A DNA stretch of 34,509 nucleotides from a virus (lineage: Duplodnaviria; Heunggongvirae; Uroviricota; Caudoviricetes). The translations under genes and the position numbers were made by a program. Within the stretch, counting starts at the first letter, position 1; every line of letters begins with the position of its first letter. Positions 4,426 to 11,081 of this stretch are shown piece by piece. The notes below the pieces were generated by a model. It was not told where the DNA came from. It ran no database searches and saw nothing but the letters and a program-made list of their open reading frames with translations. Location: the IMG/VR virus record IMGVR_UViG_2541047783_000002. The stretch is one strand, 5' to 3'.

Positions 4426-5306
4426 ACACTCCTCGTCAGTATTCTGGCGGCCATTGCACTTAATCCCGGAGACATGCGGTTGAATGCTGTGCCGGCGGCG
4501 TTAAGCTGCCCGGAAACGGTATCCAGAGCACCTGCAATATTTCTTTTGTCCACACCACTCAGCGCAGACTGTGCCTGCTGTACATACGTGGCTGCTTCGC
4601 TGGCTGTTCTGGCCAGACTGATGGCATCGGGCATGGATTCAGAGAGTGCGTTAAACGCCGGAACACTTTTCCCCAGAGCCCCGGAGATATTACCCAGTCC
4701 GCTCATCAGCCCCGGCACACGGGTCAGTGCGACAACGGGGTTATCCTTCATTTTCTGTGTCACCCGAACGGCGCTGATAGTGGTCTGGAGTACAGACTGC
4801 GCCTGTTTCGCATAGTTGACGCCGTTGCGGATGAACTGCGCCACCCCTGAAGGTGAAGGAATGGCACCGGAGACCGCCCCGACACCCGGGAGCTTCGTGC
4901 GTATTGCCGGTGGTTGCAGAGGATTTTTCGGGTCACCGGTGTATTCCCGGAGAGACACGGTGGCACTGACAGCCAGCACGTTGCCGGTACTGTCAGTCTG
5001 CTCGCTGGTTGCAGTCACATCGGTAATCACGAACCAGCCGCGATAGTCACCGTTGCCGAAGACCAGCGCCAGTGCCTGATGGGCTTTCATGGCTGTTCGC
5101 AGTCTCGCCAGCTCCACATCGGGTACACAATAATGCTGATGGAAAACCAGAGTTATCTGGATTTCGTCCAGCCTGTCGCCGACGAACTGCAGGCCAGGCT
5201 TACCCCCGATGCGGGCATGCTCCGCATAATCGACGCCGAACGTGGCCTCGAAGCCGTCCCAGTAGGTAATCAGCTCAAACTCAATATCACCCAGTACGGC
5301 AAACAT
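4422..5306 (-). CDS. tail protein, gpU-like N-terminal domain with C-terminal extension (Mu DNA-circulation-protein position)
   Basis: 294 aa ORF immediately downstream of tape measure gene (stop/start overlap at 5306). Confidence 0.5.
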   Translation of the reverse strand: MFAVLGDIEFELITYWDGFEATFGVDYAEHARIGGKPGLQFVGDRLDEIQITLVFHQHYCVPDVELARLRTAMKAHQALALVFGNGDYRGWFVITDVTATSEQTDSTGNVLAVSATVSLREYTGDPKNPLQPPAIRTKLPGVGAVSGAIPSPSGVAQFIRNGVNYAKQAQSVLQTTISAVRVTQKMKDNPVVALTRVPGLMSGLGNISGALGKSVPAFNALSESMPDAISLARTASEAATYVQQAQSALSGVDKRNIAGALDTVSGQLNAAGTAFNRMSPGLSAMAARILTRSV

Positions 5307-8257
5307 CAGCGGTACTCCTTACGTTGTTTCTGAGCCAGCAGACGCTCCAGCATTTTTTCCAGCTCATGCAGGCTCATATTCAGGGCGCCAGTCAGTCCGG
5401 CAGGCGCTGTGGTTTCCCTGCCATTGAGGAAAAACTGAGGATTAAAGCTGACCTGGATACCACCAGACGTTCCACCGCCGGTTGCAGCTGCACCACGGCC
5501 TGAATATCCGGCAGCCATGATTTCAGGCGAGGGGATACGGGGAACATCCGGTGTCATCTCATTTGCCAGACGTTGCCCTGGTAAAATCGATGCCCGGGTG
5601 GAGAGCGGGATAGCGGGCATGGAAGACAAACTATTGATTACGGCTCCGATCGCATTTTTAGCAGACGACATAAACCCGTTGATATCGGGCAACGGCATAC
5701 TGAAGCGAACACCTGAAGTGTTATCCCGTATTTCTGGCCCCTGAATGCTCACGGGCATTCTGGGGAGCAGTTCACTGGCCATTCGCTGCCCGGCCAGAGC
5801 TGCAAGCGGAGTGGTCCGCTGCAGGCCAATGGCGGCCCCCTGCGCGATATTGTCACCAAAGCCCATAAACACGCGGCTCGGCGAATGAATGCCCAGCTTT
5901 TCGCTGAACCAGCCACTGATGCTGTCACCCATTCCGGTTACACTGGATTTGAGCGACTCCCATTTGTTTTTGATACCGTTAATCAGACCATCGACAAGAT
6001 GGCCACCGAAGTCGGTAAACTTTGCCGGCAGATCAACACCAAGATATTTCAGCGCAGCTGCAAAGGCTTTACAGAGCAGACCTGCCGGCGACCAGTTAAT
6101 CAGCAGCTTACCAGTTCCCGCGATACCGCCGTTAAAGGCTTCCTGAATGTCAGCCCAGCGTTGTTCAAACCAGCTACTGATGCTGTCACCCATTCCGGTT
6201 ACACTGGATTTGAGCGACCCCCATTTGTTTTTGATACCGTTAATCAGACCGTCGACAAGATGGCCACCGAAGCCGGTGAACTTTGCCGGCAGAGCAACGC
6301 CGAAATATTTCAGCGCAGCCGCAAAGGCTTTATAGAGCAGGCCTGCCGGCGACCAGTTAATCAGCAACTTACCAATTCCCACAATGCCGCCGTTAAAGGC
6401 TTCCTGAATGTCAGCCCAGCGCTGTTTAAACCAGCCACTGACTGCCCCCCAGTTGCGGTAGATAAGGTAAGCTGCTGCCGCGACAGCGGTGATAACGAGA
6501 CCGATGGGATTCATCATCAGCGCACGTCCAATCCAGAGAACAGCACGTCCGGCGAGCATAATTCCGCGAACCAGTCCCCCGGAGAGCACGCCACTCAGTG
6601 TTCTGGCTCCTCTGGCGACGGCGCTAAATCCGGTCACCAGCCAGCGGAGCTTACCGCCTTGCCCCAGTGCGAGCGACAGACGAAGCCAGTTGGCCCGAAG
6701 TAAAACAGCATTTTTCCAGACACTTACAAAGGGGGAAATAAGGAGATTCAGCCCCAGTTTGAGACCAACAGTCGCTATCTTAATCGCAAGGAGCGCACTG
6801 ATGAGCTTAAAAGCCCCACTGACAAATTGCGGGTGAGTCGCTACCCAGTGTTTTGTCCCCTGAATGAGTGGGAGCAGTTCCTGAGTCAGAGAAATAAAAG
6901 ATGGAGCTAATTGATCGCCCAGCGTAATTGCCAGATCGCGACTGCTGACCATAAGTGCTTTAGTGGCTTCAAGGGGAGATTTCAGCCGCTGATCATAAGC
7001 ACTGGCAAGCAAATCGTTATCCGCAGCCCTGAGAGCACCGGCGCGGATCTCGCGATATCTGTCCATGTTGGCCAGCATCGGGCGGATAAATGCCATGACC
7101 TGCATATCCGCGAACATATCACCCAGACCAAAGTTTTTCGCCAGAGCCTGAAGTGCCTCATCTCTTGCCGTATCATTCTTTATTTTCATGGCGGATTTGA
7201 AGCCGGCCAGCGCTTCGGGGCTTTTGGCATTGAGGTAACGTTCTATAACACTCAACATCCCTTCAATCGGAGAGATCCCCGCAGCCTTATAACTCGCAAT
7301 AGATCCCTGCAAATCAATACCCAGATCAGCAAACTGTTTCTGAGTATCGCGGGCAAAAATTTTGGTAAGAAAGTTTTTAAAATTATTGGCTGCCTCGTCG
7401 GTGGAACCTGCACCGATTTTTGCTATCTGGAGACTGGCCCCGATTTCAGCAACAGCCTCTTTTCCACTGGCAATACCCGCCATCATTGGGGCCAGGGACT
7501 GCATCCACTTGACCTGATCCGGGATTTCAAATGACCCCTGGTCACCGGCATAAGCCATAATATTCTGAACGGCACCAAAATCTCTGGCCGCACCTTTCAG
7601 GGAGTTTTGCCAGACTGCGGCCACTTTTGCCCAGTCCTGAGATGACGTGCGTGTTGCCGTTGCCGCGCGGGCAATATCCGGCATCAGAAAACCGATATCT
7701 GACAAGTTATCAATATTGTCGCTGATGAGCGAACCCACCGCCTCCTGCAGCTCATCCTGATACTGATTGTATTTAAGCGCCCAGCCTTTTATCTGTCCGG
7801 CAAGTGCATCCCGCGTTTTATTGTCATATTTTGCGGTGATCGACATATCAATCATTTTGTCCTGAAAAGACATGGACTGCTGAACGGCAGGGGAAACGGT
7901 ATGATAAACAGTCTGTGCCATGCCATACGCTTCAATCCCCTGACCATACAGCGCCATGCGGTTAGCTTTCAGCGCATCACTGGTAGCGGATGCCGCTGAC
8001 AGACGGCGCTGCTGGCGCTCAATTTGCTCCATGGTGCGGCTTACCCGCAGCAGCTCGCTGTTGAGATGCTGCATCCGGGAAGAACCCAGTTGACCATAAC
8101 GTTCTGTTGCACGGGTTAAAGCGTTCTGACGTTCCTGCAGGCGGCGTGAGGTATCGCTCAGGGAATCAAGCGCACGGCGGGTACCGCTCATTGCAGAACG
8201 GAATGTGCTGCCAATCATCCCGCCGATAACAACGCCGACTGAAAACTGTCCCGACAT
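5306..8257 (-). CDS. tail tape measure protein
   Basis: 983 aa, Ala/Gly-rich with predicted hydrophobic segments, internal tandem duplication, located between chaperone pair and baseplate genes. Confidence 0.85.
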   Translation of the reverse strand: MSGQFSVGVVIGGMIGSTFRSAMSGTRRALDSLSDTSRRLQERQNALTRATERYGQLGSSRMQHLNSELLRVSRTMEQIERQQRRLSAASATSDALKANRMALYGQGIEAYGMAQTVYHTVSPAVQQSMSFQDKMIDMSITAKYDNKTRDALAGQIKGWALKYNQYQDELQEAVGSLISDNIDNLSDIGFLMPDIARAATATRTSSQDWAKVAAVWQNSLKGAARDFGAVQNIMAYAGDQGSFEIPDQVKWMQSLAPMMAGIASGKEAVAEIGASLQIAKIGAGSTDEAANNFKNFLTKIFARDTQKQFADLGIDLQGSIASYKAAGISPIEGMLSVIERYLNAKSPEALAGFKSAMKIKNDTARDEALQALAKNFGLGDMFADMQVMAFIRPMLANMDRYREIRAGALRAADNDLLASAYDQRLKSPLEATKALMVSSRDLAITLGDQLAPSFISLTQELLPLIQGTKHWVATHPQFVSGAFKLISALLAIKIATVGLKLGLNLLISPFVSVWKNAVLLRANWLRLSLALGQGGKLRWLVTGFSAVARGARTLSGVLSGGLVRGIMLAGRAVLWIGRALMMNPIGLVITAVAAAAYLIYRNWGAVSGWFKQRWADIQEAFNGGIVGIGKLLINWSPAGLLYKAFAAALKYFGVALPAKFTGFGGHLVDGLINGIKNKWGSLKSSVTGMGDSISSWFEQRWADIQEAFNGGIAGTGKLLINWSPAGLLCKAFAAALKYLGVDLPAKFTDFGGHLVDGLINGIKNKWESLKSSVTGMGDSISGWFSEKLGIHSPSRVFMGFGDNIAQGAAIGLQRTTPLAALAGQRMASELLPRMPVSIQGPEIRDNTSGVRFSMPLPDINGFMSSAKNAIGAVINSLSSMPAIPLSTRASILPGQRLANEMTPDVPRIPSPEIMAAGYSGRGAAATGGGTSGGIQVSFNPQFFLNGRETTAPAGLTGALNMSLHELEKMLERLLAQKQRKEYR
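5907..6428. repeat. 261-bp direct tandem duplication (2 copies, a few mismatches) inside tape measure gene
   Basis: Motif aaccagc[ct]actga recurs at 5907, 6168 and 6429; encoded peptide repeat SWFEQRWADIQEAFNGGI...KWxSLKSSVTGMGDSIS occurs twice in the 983-aa product. Confidence 0.85.
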
Positions 8258-8332
8258 AGTGGTTAACCTCCGGGGAAGGTGAAAAGACGTGAGGGGATAA
8301 CGCAGAACAGCCGCTACTGGCGGCTGTCTGTA

Positions 8333-8590
8333 CTATGATTTGTCGCCGTACTCGCTTTTGATTTGCTCTTCAGCCTGCTCCAGCCACATCTCCAGATCGT
8401 CAGTATCGAGGGCATCAATCTCCCCCGGCTGAAACCGGAACCATCTCGCCAGCAGCCCCTGCGCCTGCGTCAGCGCCCTGGTTGCTCTCACCCATCCCCG
8501 TGATGAGCTGAAATCGTTTCTGTAACTGCAGGTAATCAGCCAGATCCATATTGTCGAGATCTTCCGGGAGAAGACCAGTACTGCGGGCAA
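8333..8590 (-). CDS. putative frameshift extension of tail assembly chaperone (E'/T-like), +1 frame relative to 8415..8750
   Basis: Overlapping ORF in +1 frame, open from about 8590 to stop at 8333; -1 frame is closed by several stops; C5 run on plus strand at 8422-8426 (G5 on mRNA) allows tRNA-Gly re-pairing GGG to GGG in +1 frame. Confidence 0.4.
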   Translation of the reverse strand: MPAVLVFSRKISTIWIWLITCSYRNDFSSSRGWVRATRALTQAQGLLARWFRFQPGEIDALDTDDLEMWLEQAEEQIKSEYGDKS

Positions 8591-8750
8591 TCAGCGGTTC
8601 GTCCCAGTCTGCCGGGTTTTTGCTGATTTTGCGCACCTGCTTCAGGTCTTTTACCGTCAGGCGTTTCAATTCAACCTGCTCAATTCTGGTGCCGGCAGCA
8701 GTGGTGAAGGGATAAGACAATTTAAAAGTATCGGACTGGGTCTGTGACAT
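8415..8750 (-). CDS. tail assembly chaperone (P2 gpE / Mu gp41-like)
   Basis: 111 aa between tube and tape measure genes; motif IEQVELKRLTVKDLKQV typical of this chaperone family; overlapped by alternative-frame ORF. Confidence 0.7.
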   Translation of the reverse strand: MSQTQSDTFKLSYPFTTAAGTRIEQVELKRLTVKDLKQVRKISKNPADWDEPLIARSTGLLPEDLDNMDLADYLQLQKRFQLITGMGESNQGADAGAGAAGEMVPVSAGGD

Positions 8751-9132: not shown

Positions 9133-9654
9133 TCAGCCCCCGATATTGATGCGGTAGTCGGTCAGTTGATCAACGCCACCAACGCGGAAGATGTTGGCCA
9201 GATAGTCCAGCTCCAGCAACTCTTCACCATCCAGTACCTGCTTGATGTACGTGCAGGTGAAGCTACTGGAGAATTCGGCGTTCTCATGCTGTTTGAACGT
9301 CCCCAGCGGGTTCTTCTTGAACATGATCGTCAGGAAGGTGACCAGCGGGATTTCGTCAATCAGCCCCTGCGAGCTGTAGCGCTGGACGCTTGAGCGACAC
9401 TGCAGCGCCAGCGACTTGTACGGGTTCGCGGCAGACAGCATCGCGTCGCGGTAAAAGCTGTTCCACTTGATCTCGCCCTCAAGCTTGTCGAAGCCTGCCG
9501 GGAGTTCCACCTTGCCCACCATCCCCAGCGCCTTATGCTCCTGCATGGTCATGGAGACGTCCGGGAGTTTGACCTCCTCGGCACGCCCCAGCAGGTTAGC
9601 ACCATCCAGGTAGATGTTGGCATTCGTGATGCGGTTGATCTCAATCTTTGCCAT
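9133..9654 (-). CDS. tail tube protein (P2 FII / Mu gpM-like)
   Basis: 173 aa directly after sheath gene (start/stop overlap at 9654). Confidence 0.8.
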   Translation of the reverse strand: MAKIEINRITNANIYLDGANLLGRAEEVKLPDVSMTMQEHKALGMVGKVELPAGFDKLEGEIKWNSFYRDAMLSAANPYKSLALQCRSSVQRYSSQGLIDEIPLVTFLTIMFKKNPLGTFKQHENAEFSSSFTCTYIKQVLDGEELLELDYLANIFRVGGVDQLTDYRINIGG

Positions 9655-11081
9655 CAGCTATTCCCCTTCAGGGTTAACAGATATTCCGAGGTGATCTCGG
9701 TCTCAAACGTCAGCCGCTCCAGCGACGGTGGCGGCGTGTATTTGTAGCTCAGCAACAGGTGACCTGCGGCAAGCTCCGTCTCTTCATTACGGGCCGGATC
9801 AAACCAGCAGCTGAAGCCCAGCAGCGCACCGTCGCCAATCAGTTTGCGACCATAGGCGTTGACCGACTCCGTCAGTGCATCAATCAGCGCCTGAGTAATC
9901 GGCATGTCGATGTACTGCTGGCTGAAGTAACGAATGGACTCATTGATCACATCACCGGTGCGACGAACGTTCTCAAAGTTACGCATATGGGTGACCGTTG
10001 GCCATGCTGCCGTCCGGTTACCCCACAGACGAAGGCCGCTGCCGTAACTGCTGAATACCGTGGTGATCCCCTGTTCGTTGAGCAGGTTCACCTCGCTCTG
10101 CGGGTCGTCAATCATTGCTGACAGTTGGCGCTCCACACCAGTGATACCCAGAATCTCCTGGTTGGAGGACGACCACCAGTAACCCTTGTCCATGTCGACC
10201 CTGGCACGCAGACCTGCAGCACGCTGGCTCAGCGGCTCCAGCCGTTCGCTGTTGGTGACCGCGTCGTACACCTTGACGTGCGGGTAGCACAGACGGACGC
10301 GGTCGGAGCTGGTGTTGAAGTTAATGGTGCCTTCCGGGCCACGCCCCGCCAGAGCCTGAGCAAAAGTGGTACCAATCGGCGCGTCGATGTAAGTCACCGC
10401 GCCCAGCTTCTCAGCCATGGCGATAAGCTCAACCGAGACGCTGTTCTGGGTGCAGAATACCGGGGCAATCAGGATTTTTGCGAAGTAACCAAACAGGTTG
10501 AAGCTGTCGTTAAGCAGCTTCATACCGGTACGGTTGCCCGCCGCGTTAACGGCACCGATGATATCAGCCGGGGTGACTTTAGTTGGATCAGCATAGTTAT
10601 AGCTGGCCTTCACCGTTGCATCTGCCGCGATGCTCTTACCGAGGTTGGTAATCGCCCCGGTCTGTGCATCAAGCGAGTAGTCCTGACCTTCCACATAAGG
10701 CTGGCCATCGTTGTCCGGTTTCAGTACCAGCTGCGCGACCACCGGATTAGCCAGCTGTGCCTTGCCCGTCGCCTTGTCGAACGCTACATCTTCATCGGCC
10801 ACAGCGGTTTTATGCACAGCCGGATCAAGCACGTTAATGACCAGAACGGTGCCTGCACCATGGTCATAAATCGCATCCAGCGCCTGCGGAATGGTAAAGC
10901 CGGTGAGCTGGTTGCCAAACGCAGCAGCATCTTTCTCAGACAGGCACTGCACCAGCGTATTGACGTCCCCCATCGGGGCGGTACCAATCAGGCCAATAAC
11001 GGCAGATTTCACCGTTTTAACCGGGCGGGCTCCGTTTTCCACCTCAATGGTTTCGACGCCATGCAGATAGTTAGCTGCCAT
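9654..11081 (-). CDS. contractile tail sheath protein (P2 FI / Mu gpL-like)
   Basis: 475 aa; N-terminus MAANYLHGVETIEVENG... resembles sheath N-termini (P2 FI starts MSDYHHGVQVLEI...). Confidence 0.85.
   Translation of the reverse strand: MAANYLHGVETIEVENGARPVKTVKSAVIGLIGTAPMGDVNTLVQCLSEKDAAAFGNQLTGFTIPQALDAIYDHGAGTVLVINVLDPAVHKTAVADEDVAFDKATGKAQLANPVVAQLVLKPDNDGQPYVEGQDYSLDAQTGAITNLGKSIAADATVKASYNYADPTKVTPADIIGAVNAAGNRTGMKLLNDSFNLFGYFAKILIAPVFCTQNSVSVELIAMAEKLGAVTYIDAPIGTTFAQALAGRGPEGTINFNTSSDRVRLCYPHVKVYDAVTNSERLEPLSQRAAGLRARVDMDKGYWWSSSNQEILGITGVERQLSAMIDDPQSEVNLLNEQGITTVFSSYGSGLRLWGNRTAAWPTVTHMRNFENVRRTGDVINESIRYFSQQYIDMPITQALIDALTESVNAYGRKLIGDGALLGFSCWFDPARNEETELAAGHLLLSYKYTPPPSLERLTFETEITSEYLLTLKGNS

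Follow-up and report, generated by a model that had tools for sequence, protein, structure and literature searches.

A conserved UUU_C as candidate +1 frameshift site in the overlapping tail assembly chaperone genes of BcepMu-like prophages

Organization of the tail chaperone locus

The tail assembly chaperone locus of a tailed virus (Caudoviricetes; IMG/VR record IMGVR_UViG_2541047783_000002) was analyzed in a stretch of 34,509 nucleotides, hereafter the window. Two open reading frames (ORFs) overlap there in different frames, the first (ORF1) resembling the short chaperone gpE of phage P2 and the second its extension E', and comparison with related loci pointed to a +1 ribosomal frameshift, probably on a conserved UUU_C tetranucleotide, as the route from one to the other. 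The element is a BcepMu-like Escherichia coli prophage with a P2-type tail module. The locus segment was 100% identical to several E. coli chromosomes and 97% identical to Escherichia phage PhiKM (genus Bcepmuvirus), and the prophage family was found in 641 of 5,426 complete E. coli genomes. The genes of this region all lie on the minus strand (Table 1), and P2 gpU-, X-, D-, V- and W-like genes follow past the tape measure gene.

Table 1. Features of the chaperone locus and its surroundings, in window positions
Feature	Position	Strand	Basis or remark
Tail sheath gene	11081..9654	-	Pfam PF04984
Tail tube gene, P2 FII type	9654..9133	-	Pfam PF04985 Phage_tube, 1e-54
ORF of 93 amino acids	9130..8849	-	Between tube and chaperone genes
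ORF1, gpE-like tail assembly chaperone, 111 amino acids, zero frame, short product	8750..8415	-	Pfam PF10109
CGA_UUU_C, proposed +1 slip site	8510..8516	-	UUU 8513..8511 in P site, C 8510, CGA 8516..8514 in E site
Candidate +1-frame extension, 58 codons SSSRGWVRATRALTQAQGLLARWFRFQPGEIDALDTDDLEMWLEQAEEQIKSEYGDKS and TAG stop (8335..8333)	8333..8509	-	+1 synonymous pattern, phrog_8286
Zone with two weaker alternative +1 sites	8454..8501	-	Both frames partly constrained over 8510..8470
GpE-like (P2 E') domain, fusion residues 100-132	8354..8452	-	Pfam PF06528
G5 run	8422..8426	-	Inside E' domain, codes Pro-Gly-Glu in +1 frame
Tail tape measure gene, 983 amino acids, directly downstream	5306..8257	-	Pfam PF10145, 5e-20

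Residues 8-81 of ORF1 matched the Pfam family Phage_TAC_7 ('E, or 41 or 14') with an E value of 3.5e-22 and 78.7 bits (cut-off 25), and its product is named 'phage tail assembly protein' in RefSeq. No other Pfam family, Gp41_Mu (PF23746) included, matched ORF1 at E <= 0.01. The overlapping ORF pair is located between the tube gene and the tape measure gene, as in G/GT-type chaperone loci. An earlier note, made from the window sequence, had rightly recognized a tail chaperone pair, which is of the G/GT or E/E' type. The second ORF was also correctly placed by it in the +1 frame of ORF1, where it extends over 8590..8333.

Related loci were gathered from 80 viral contigs and 59 genome loci, to which annotated phages were added, and frame classes were counted over 145 of them. 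The second ORF lay in the +1 frame in 138 loci, in the -1 frame in three (all from Pasteurellaceae), and in the same frame as ORF1 in four, each of the latter with a 1-nucleotide deletion. The +1 class comprised 104 unique sequences and 14 lineages at 70% identity, from Enterobacterales, Burkholderia, Ralstonia, Pseudomonas and other hosts, and included the Burkholderia phages BcepMu and phiE255 as well as phages of Ralstonia, Pseudomonas, Salmonella and Klebsiella.

The -1 frame had been described in the earlier note as closed by several stops. Stops do occur at 8540, 8492 and 8474, but the frame is then open for 51 codons (8469..8317), of which 18 fall within the end of ORF1 and 33 lie past it. 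A -1 shift was nonetheless rejected, because this frame displayed non-synonymous change only and no homology; the stops themselves are not what excludes it.

The +1-frame extension and its GpE-like domain

Joining codons 1-80 of ORF1 to the 58 residues of the +1 frame gives a predicted E-E' fusion of 138 amino acids, with the junction ...LQKRF|SSSRGW.... The extension matched phrog_8286 (2e-34) and could be aligned with those of six other lineages. A match to the GpE domain family (PF06528, Phage_P2_GpE) fell on fusion residues 100-132 (LARWFRFQPGEIDALD...), covering profile positions 4-36 of 37. The match of the fusion or the extension was weak (E 0.0017-0.008, 16-18 bits) and, unlike that of P2, fell below the Pfam cut-off of 23 bits; P2 E+E' scored 1.2e-21 and the aligned relative from a Pasteurella phage 9.4e-14. 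Three of the seven aligned fusions reached E <= 0.01 with this profile, and BLASTP against P2 E' gave an E value of 0.027. Searching NCBIfam with the fusion and the extension returned no match, and no relative of solved structure was found by sequence. Leu93 of the fusion was invariant across the seven lineages, including the one in which E' lies in the -1 frame.

Selection acted on the two frames in different parts of the overlap. Codon-by-codon synonymous and non-synonymous changes were summed across non-reference unique sequences, using 56 unique close relatives. In the window family, only the zero frame was constrained up to 8511, both frames were partly constrained from 8510 to about 8470, and only the +1 frame from about 8468 onwards. 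Upstream of 8513, the codon counts gave no sign of selection on the +1 frame. A shift at 8513..8510 with a loosely constrained linker behind it would be expected to leave such a pattern.

The extension could also be made with no frameshift, from an internal start such as GUG 8491, or not be expressed at all. Databases do hold the E' ORF as a separate small protein (the phrog_8286 match and P0079), BcepMu gp42 and phiE255 gp16 are annotated as separate genes, and GUG 8491 is preceded by GGGGA and is where gene callers start. However, no start codon of E' was conserved among the lineages compared: a close group (~86% identity) has GCA in place of GUG, and two lineages contain no ATG, GTG or TTG anywhere in the open +1 stretch. 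The strong purifying selection on E' indicates that it is expressed, and in P2 and lambda, whose systems are homologous, the extension functions only when fused (PMC5009743). Translation from an internal start, or silence of E', is therefore considered unlikely.

A probable frame change upstream of the G5 run

The earlier note had placed the slip at the G5 run, where tRNA-Gly would move +1 on GGG_G, or -2 from GGA, at 8426..8422 and yield a 29-residue acidic tail (...VSAG(G)EIDALD...). Several elements of this proposal are present: the mRNA reads GCC GGG GGA GAU UGA at 8429..8415, ORF1 of the window is open up to the run, perfect re-pairing is possible there, the +1 reading that follows is the acidic EIDALDTDDLEMWLEQAEEQIKSEYGDKS as described, and the run taken alone resembles the -2 site of phage Mu (CGG_GGG_C). 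Runs of this kind are not rare in the window, which has eight G-runs of five or more and 30 such C-runs.

The run was not kept in relatives, a finding that the earlier note had itself named as refuting its model. Among the 56 close relatives, GCC-GGGGG-A was replaced by GCC-UGGGG, GCC-AGGGG or ACC/GCC-GAGUG. In the +1 frame these variants turn CCG into CCU or CCA, all Pro codons, and GGG into AGU, which replaces Gly by Ser (compare 'QPSEI' of BcepMu), so that CCU-GGG, CCA-GGG and CCG-AGU all retain Pro-Gly/Ser-Glu. Conservation of the +1 frame was strict just upstream as well: over the codons AGA-UGG-UUC-CGG-UUU-CAG-CCG (8446..8426), 128 synonymous and 0 non-synonymous changes were counted, including CGG to AGA, while the zero frame accumulated 0 synonymous and 91 non-synonymous changes and 30 stops.

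ORF1 itself often ends before the run. In about 30 of the 56 close relatives, including Klebsiella phage KP12, a TAG ends it five codons ahead of the run, and it also ends upstream of the run in BcepMu and Bise. A 90-amino-acid variant of ORF1 (P0014), with a stop at codon 91 (window 8480), was found on 914 contigs, against 487 for the 111-amino-acid form, and the Gly/Ala-rich C-terminal tail of the short chaperone looks dispensable for that reason. In this variant (L020/L021, P0014), the change is CAG to TAG at the equivalent of window 8480-8478, which is silent in the +1 frame. A shift at the G5 run, with its junction at residue 109/110, would also come too late for the E' domain, which starts about 13 residues earlier; roughly the first 13 of the 37 GpE-domain positions would be lost, and the 29 residues amount to about half of the extension deduced here.

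Some assemblies carry 1-nucleotide deletions at or beside the run (G5 to G4, CC to C), namely L091 (Erwinia tracheiphila), L075, L081 and P0003-P0009. The resulting ORFs are in-frame fusions with the junction that the earlier note had predicted, and L091, L075 and P0003-P0005 encode exactly its product. These deletions fall at homopolymer sites, several of the sequences have further homopolymer indels, and the G4 form had 0 exact IMG/VR matches versus 55 for G5. Sequencing noise or decay of the prophages is the probable cause. Naturally fused 138-amino-acid proteins in databases were also considered as a guide to the junction and proved uninformative, with junctions at varied homopolymers and often extra indels.

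A slip at the G5 run is most likely a wrong interpretation; the comparison of sequences has largely refuted it, and it is retained as a very improbable option. Because the run varies, ORF1 stops earlier in many relatives, codons ahead of the run are already under +1-frame selection, the E' domain begins before it and Leu93 is invariant, the frame change is placed upstream of about 8475. It is very likely that ribosomes enter the +1 frame before reaching 8455.

Productive transcriptional slippage typically involves A/T runs of 7-9 or more, while the runs available here are short (T3, G4, G5) and the G-runs among them are not conserved. Slippage of RNA polymerase on a homopolymer in place of a ribosomal shift, which is known to have this effect in other genes (PMC5009743), is the least plausible of the explanations considered and seems extremely unlikely.

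A conserved UUU_C at the end of the chaperone domain

A single slippery tetranucleotide, UUU_C, was common to the permitted zone across lineages. About 85 bases separate it from the G-run downstream and about 32 codons from the stop of ORF1, and its UUU codon encodes F80 of ORF1, the conserved Phe that ends the TAC_7 domain. TTT followed by C was found in 137 of the 138 +1-class loci (103 of 104 unique sequences, 13 of 14 lineages), and the fourteenth lineage has CUU_C, from which re-pairing on UUC is still possible. TTTC was the sole invariant block in a 20-sequence alignment across lineages. The site is thus a slippery sequence within the overlap, but not a canonical X_XXY_YYZ heptamer.

At three other conserved Phe positions of the same genes, TTT and TTC were mixed (53/13, 72/30 and 83/9). 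In high-GC lineages (BcepMu, Ralstonia, Pandoraea and two Pseudomonas phages), only about 9-20% of the Phe codons of neighboring ORFs are TTT, yet UUU is kept here, with a joint probability of UUU retention of roughly 10^-6 when lineages are treated as independent and crude ORF sets are used. The residue after the Phe was Gln, Arg, Leu or His, with a codon beginning with C throughout. The limits of the overlap also bracket the site: the +1 frame opens just three codons ahead of the Phe in the Ralstonia, Pandoraea and Pseudomonas Komp_PAO1 lineages, and the zero frame closes 5-11 codons past it in L145, L088 and L020.

The UUU codon is preceded by the rare codon CGA in 10 of the 14 lineages, and coding does not explain the third base of this codon. 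E-site effects on frameshifting are established from work on prfB. By analogy, the conserved CGA in the E site may stimulate the +1 slip through its weak I:A pair.

In L090 (Apirhabdus apintestini CP138906.1, ~1420-1440), a 1-nucleotide deletion 12 nucleotides upstream of the UUU_C position joins the E domain to the complete +1 reading (RPDFKKSQGW...LLARWFRF...) within a single ORF; this is either a natural permanent E-E' fusion, which if real would leave no separate short form, or an assembly error. L145, from a Gallionellaceae metagenome-assembled genome (~1417-1435), is the only lineage lacking UUU_C. It reads UGU CUU CGG GGG CUU ACC UGA, where CUU_C, as in prfB, and CGG_GGG_C, as in Mu, come together five codons ahead of the stop, and is possibly an intermediate between site types.

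Other +1 sites in the overlap were considered, with tRNA-Gly slipping on ACG_GGG_AUG_G (8501..8492) or on GCA_GGG_GCU (8462..8454). At the first, GGG would re-pair on GGA, followed by UGG (Trp), and clear conservation of the +1 frame starts at GGA-UGG (8497..8492), with 39 synonymous versus 1 non-synonymous changes at the Gly codon and an invariant Trp; the invariant UGG may, however, be a by-product of zero-frame NUG-G. At the second, around 8459, re-pairing from GGG to GGG is perfect in the window, and the verified -2 site of Mu is likewise a G-run (CGG_GGG_CGA), but this second site comes after the L020/L021 stop at 8480 and after the invariant E' Leu93. Neither motif was conserved outside the enterobacterial subclade: ACG_GGG_AUG_G is replaced elsewhere by GGC_CUG, AGC_AUG, GUG_GGU or CUG_GUG, and GCA_GGG_GCU by GGG_C, GGG_U or GGG_A, or is absent. 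A shift at either of these sites is doubtful, if somewhat less so than an internal start.

Several points weigh against a slip at UUU_C. The evidence for it is entirely comparative, and lineages related by descent make joint probabilities rough. No tract resembling a Shine-Dalgarno (SD) sequence was present upstream of UUU_C and no conserved stimulator was found; RNAalifold gave -3.2 and 0 kcal/mol for two alignments, one of them poorly anchored, with no covariation, and single-sequence fold z-scores were unremarkable (-2.4 to +1.5). Local hairpins directly after UUU_CA in the window and in L085 were not conserved. The A-site codon is not consistently rare (CAG, CAA, CUG, CGC). The conservation of UUU plus a pyrimidine could partly reflect dual coding, if the +1 Phe codon (UUC) were translated from a site further upstream, an explanation excluded only for the lineages whose +1 frame opens three codons upstream. 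Because the four +1 codons right after UUU_C are not conserved, a shift a few codons downstream (ACG GGG AUG G) fits the enterobacterial data equally well. Finally, the zone contains other slippery sequences in some lineages: L088 has CCC_C and L145 a CGG_GGG_C like that of Mu.

On balance, UUU_C is favored as the specific slip site, with somewhat better than even confidence. The broader reading, in which tRNA-Phe slips +1 on a strictly conserved (CGA_)UUU_C to yield the E-E' fusion throughout one clade of P2-tail-type phages and prophages, is given a probability of roughly 55%. The clade includes BcepMu-like elements of Enterobacterales, Burkholderia, Ralstonia, Pandoraea and Pseudomonas.

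Proposed mechanism

For the slip, its efficiency and the protein interactions, we infer the following scheme. Most ribosomes would read ORF1 to its stop and produce the short gpE-like chaperone, whose domain ends near residue 85, the remainder being the apparently dispensable Gly/Ala-rich tail. A minority would pause with tRNA-Phe on UUU (8513..8511), and the tRNA would move one base forward from UUU to UUC, its Watson-Crick codon. The resulting product of 138 amino acids would consist of the E domain, the poorly conserved linker SSSRGWVRATRA and the GpE/E'-like domain LTQAQGLLARWFRFQPGEIDALDTDDLEMWLEQAEEQIK. If the pair works like lambda G/GT and P2 E/E+E', the N-terminal region common to both products would bind the tape measure protein and the extension would recruit the tube protein, with the frameshift efficiency setting the ratio of the two forms.

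The chemistry of such a step is documented in other systems. The anticodon of tRNA-Phe (3'-AAG-5') prefers UUC and reads UUU by wobble, and P-site slippage from UUU_C to UUC is the accepted mechanism at the UCC_UUU_CGU site of influenza PA-X (PMC3498833). In bacteria, UUU_Ynn is described as 'especially prone to +1 frameshifting' and is the apparent site of YopN-TyeA (PMC5009743). A -2 event at UUU_C is unlikely, as tRNA-Phe would have to re-pair on GAU. The efficiency is expected to be modest, since neither a conserved RNA structure nor an SD-like stimulator was found, and a modest efficiency would suit a ratio of the G/GT type.

Comparison with known frameshifting systems

Frameshifting in tail chaperone genes is classical and goes in the -1, -2 or +1 direction depending on the phage (PMC5009743, PMC2628397). 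The closest homologue was gpE/gpE+E' of P2, with which the window locus shares the order of FII tube, E and T tape measure genes, the N-terminal Phage_TAC_7 domain and, apparently, the GpE-type extension. The products measure 91/142 amino acids in P2 and 111/138 in the window. P2 uses a verified -1 shift on U_UUU_UUG, whereas E' of the window is in the +1 frame and no -1 heptamer is present. The slip site of P2 (G_GUU_UUU_UUG) also lies at the C-terminal edge of TAC_7, at profile positions 76-78, and the window Phe is at position 74. An exact positional identity of this Phe with the slip-site Phe of P2 was considered and dropped, the two being three profile positions apart in Pfam coordinates. 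As a member of the P2 family, the window pair would thus gain its extension by a shift of opposite sense, at a site near but not identical to that of P2. A relative in the -1 class, from Pasteurella phage AFS-2018a (L089), has the G_GGA_AAG heptamer of lambda right ahead of the stop.

Mu gp41/gp41-42 is likewise a tail chaperone with its extension in the +1 frame, reached by a verified and annotated -2 frameshift at about 2.2% (PMC3498833). Mu shows that shifts other than -1 are used for tail chaperones (PMC3498833, PMC5009743), and +1 cases are listed in reviews (PMC5009743). The earlier note had called a +1 or -2 event unusual, a judgment that should be moderated. Mu slips on CGG_GGG_CGA, whereas the G-run of the window is not conserved, lies inside E' and is downstream of the ORF1 stops in relatives. 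The Mu extension is not GpE-like, and Mu gp41 belongs to Gp41_Mu (PF23746, 9e-35), with only a weak TAC_7 match (24.7 bits against a cut-off of 25).

The logic of lambda gpG/gpGT is shared, with two products of common N-terminus encoded between the tube and tape measure genes, but lambda uses a -1 shift and has no sequence similarity to the window locus. In lambda the two forms are made in a fixed low ratio and neither is found in virions (PMC5009743). Such chaperones being absent from mature virions (PMC5009743), mass spectrometry of virions, which the earlier note had suggested as a test, would be a poor one.

YopN-TyeA of Yersinia and PA-X of influenza A (UCC_UUU_CGU) share the proposed chemistry, a P-site tRNA-Phe moving from UUU to UUC. 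These are unrelated genes, the A-site codon in the window clade is mostly CAG and not a rare Arg codon, and the evidence presented here is comparative. The site of BcepMu, UCC_UUU_CGC, comes near that of PA-X. Gp41 (E) and gp42 (E') of BcepMu (AY539836) are true homologues of ORF1 and the +1 ORF.

Annotation of the chaperone pair and implications

An E-E' frameshift join was annotated in none of the public records inspected for the clade. RefSeq gives only 'phage tail assembly protein', the PhiKM record 'tail protein E', and that of phiE255 gp15 and gp16. In the BcepMu record (AY539836), gp41, gp42 ('G-like', independent) and gp43 are separate, and the +1 link from E to E' is absent. The long form of the chaperone is thus missing from the RefSeq/GenBank annotation of the prophage family and from the BcepMu-like phage records inspected. 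A defined site, UUU_C at the last Phe of TAC_7, would permit its annotation as a slippage join.

BcepMu gp43 (L084, 6978-7364) is annotated as an 'alternative gene42 C-terminus produced by ribosomal slippage'. It lies in the frame of gp41 and reads like non-coding GC-rich sequence, and the slippage proposed for it is probably spurious. Another frame of the gp43 gap encodes a peptide shared with Ralstonia phage YO107_2 (L086, ~1900-2150), ..GP[KR]KA.PK..T.PNT.GT..GNS..; the BcepMu and Ralstonia lineages probably have a small unannotated gene between E' and the tape measure gene.

Both tail chaperone frameshifting (-2 in Mu, +1 in others) and +1 slippage on UUU_Y are already documented. No description of UUU_C in a phage tail gene was found in the papers searched, and within those papers and records it would be the first such +1 site described for phage tail assembly. 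If the reading is correct, evolution has reversed the direction of a programmed frameshift around a Phe codon and left the protein outcome unchanged. A natural comparison would then be available in which one stoichiometry problem is solved by -1 (P2, the Pasteurella phage), -2 (Mu) and +1 (the window clade) shifts. For study, the site would also provide a simple bacterial UUU_C cassette, and it would supply frameshift predictors with a positive +1 case that the 'near the stop codon' rule does not cover. The general view of tail assembly stays as it was.

Other observations at the locus

The 93-amino-acid ORF between the tube gene and ORF1 was kept in relatives, where it is annotated as hypothetical; P2 has no gene at this position. 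Its sole match was to DUF7739, weak and below the cut-off (E = 0.0015). A terminator-like hairpin (AGGGGCTCCGGCCCCT then TTCTTCTT, window 8842-8827, minus strand) lies between this ORF and the start of ORF1. Such an element is odd within a tail operon, and it may act as an attenuator or stabilize the RNA. A perfect 8-bp hairpin with no T-run (ACAGCCGC-CAGTA-GCGGCTGT, window 8327-8307, minus strand) was found just past the E' stop, 50 nucleotides ahead of the tape measure start.

The PhiKM record has a sequencing gap within its tape measure gene. The tape measure gene of the window contains a tandem duplication of 261 bp (window 5907-6441, minus strand; 2.0 copies, 92% identical), corresponding to a repeated 87-amino-acid segment of the protein (WF.QRWADIQEAFNGGI...DSIS), which would lengthen the ruler.

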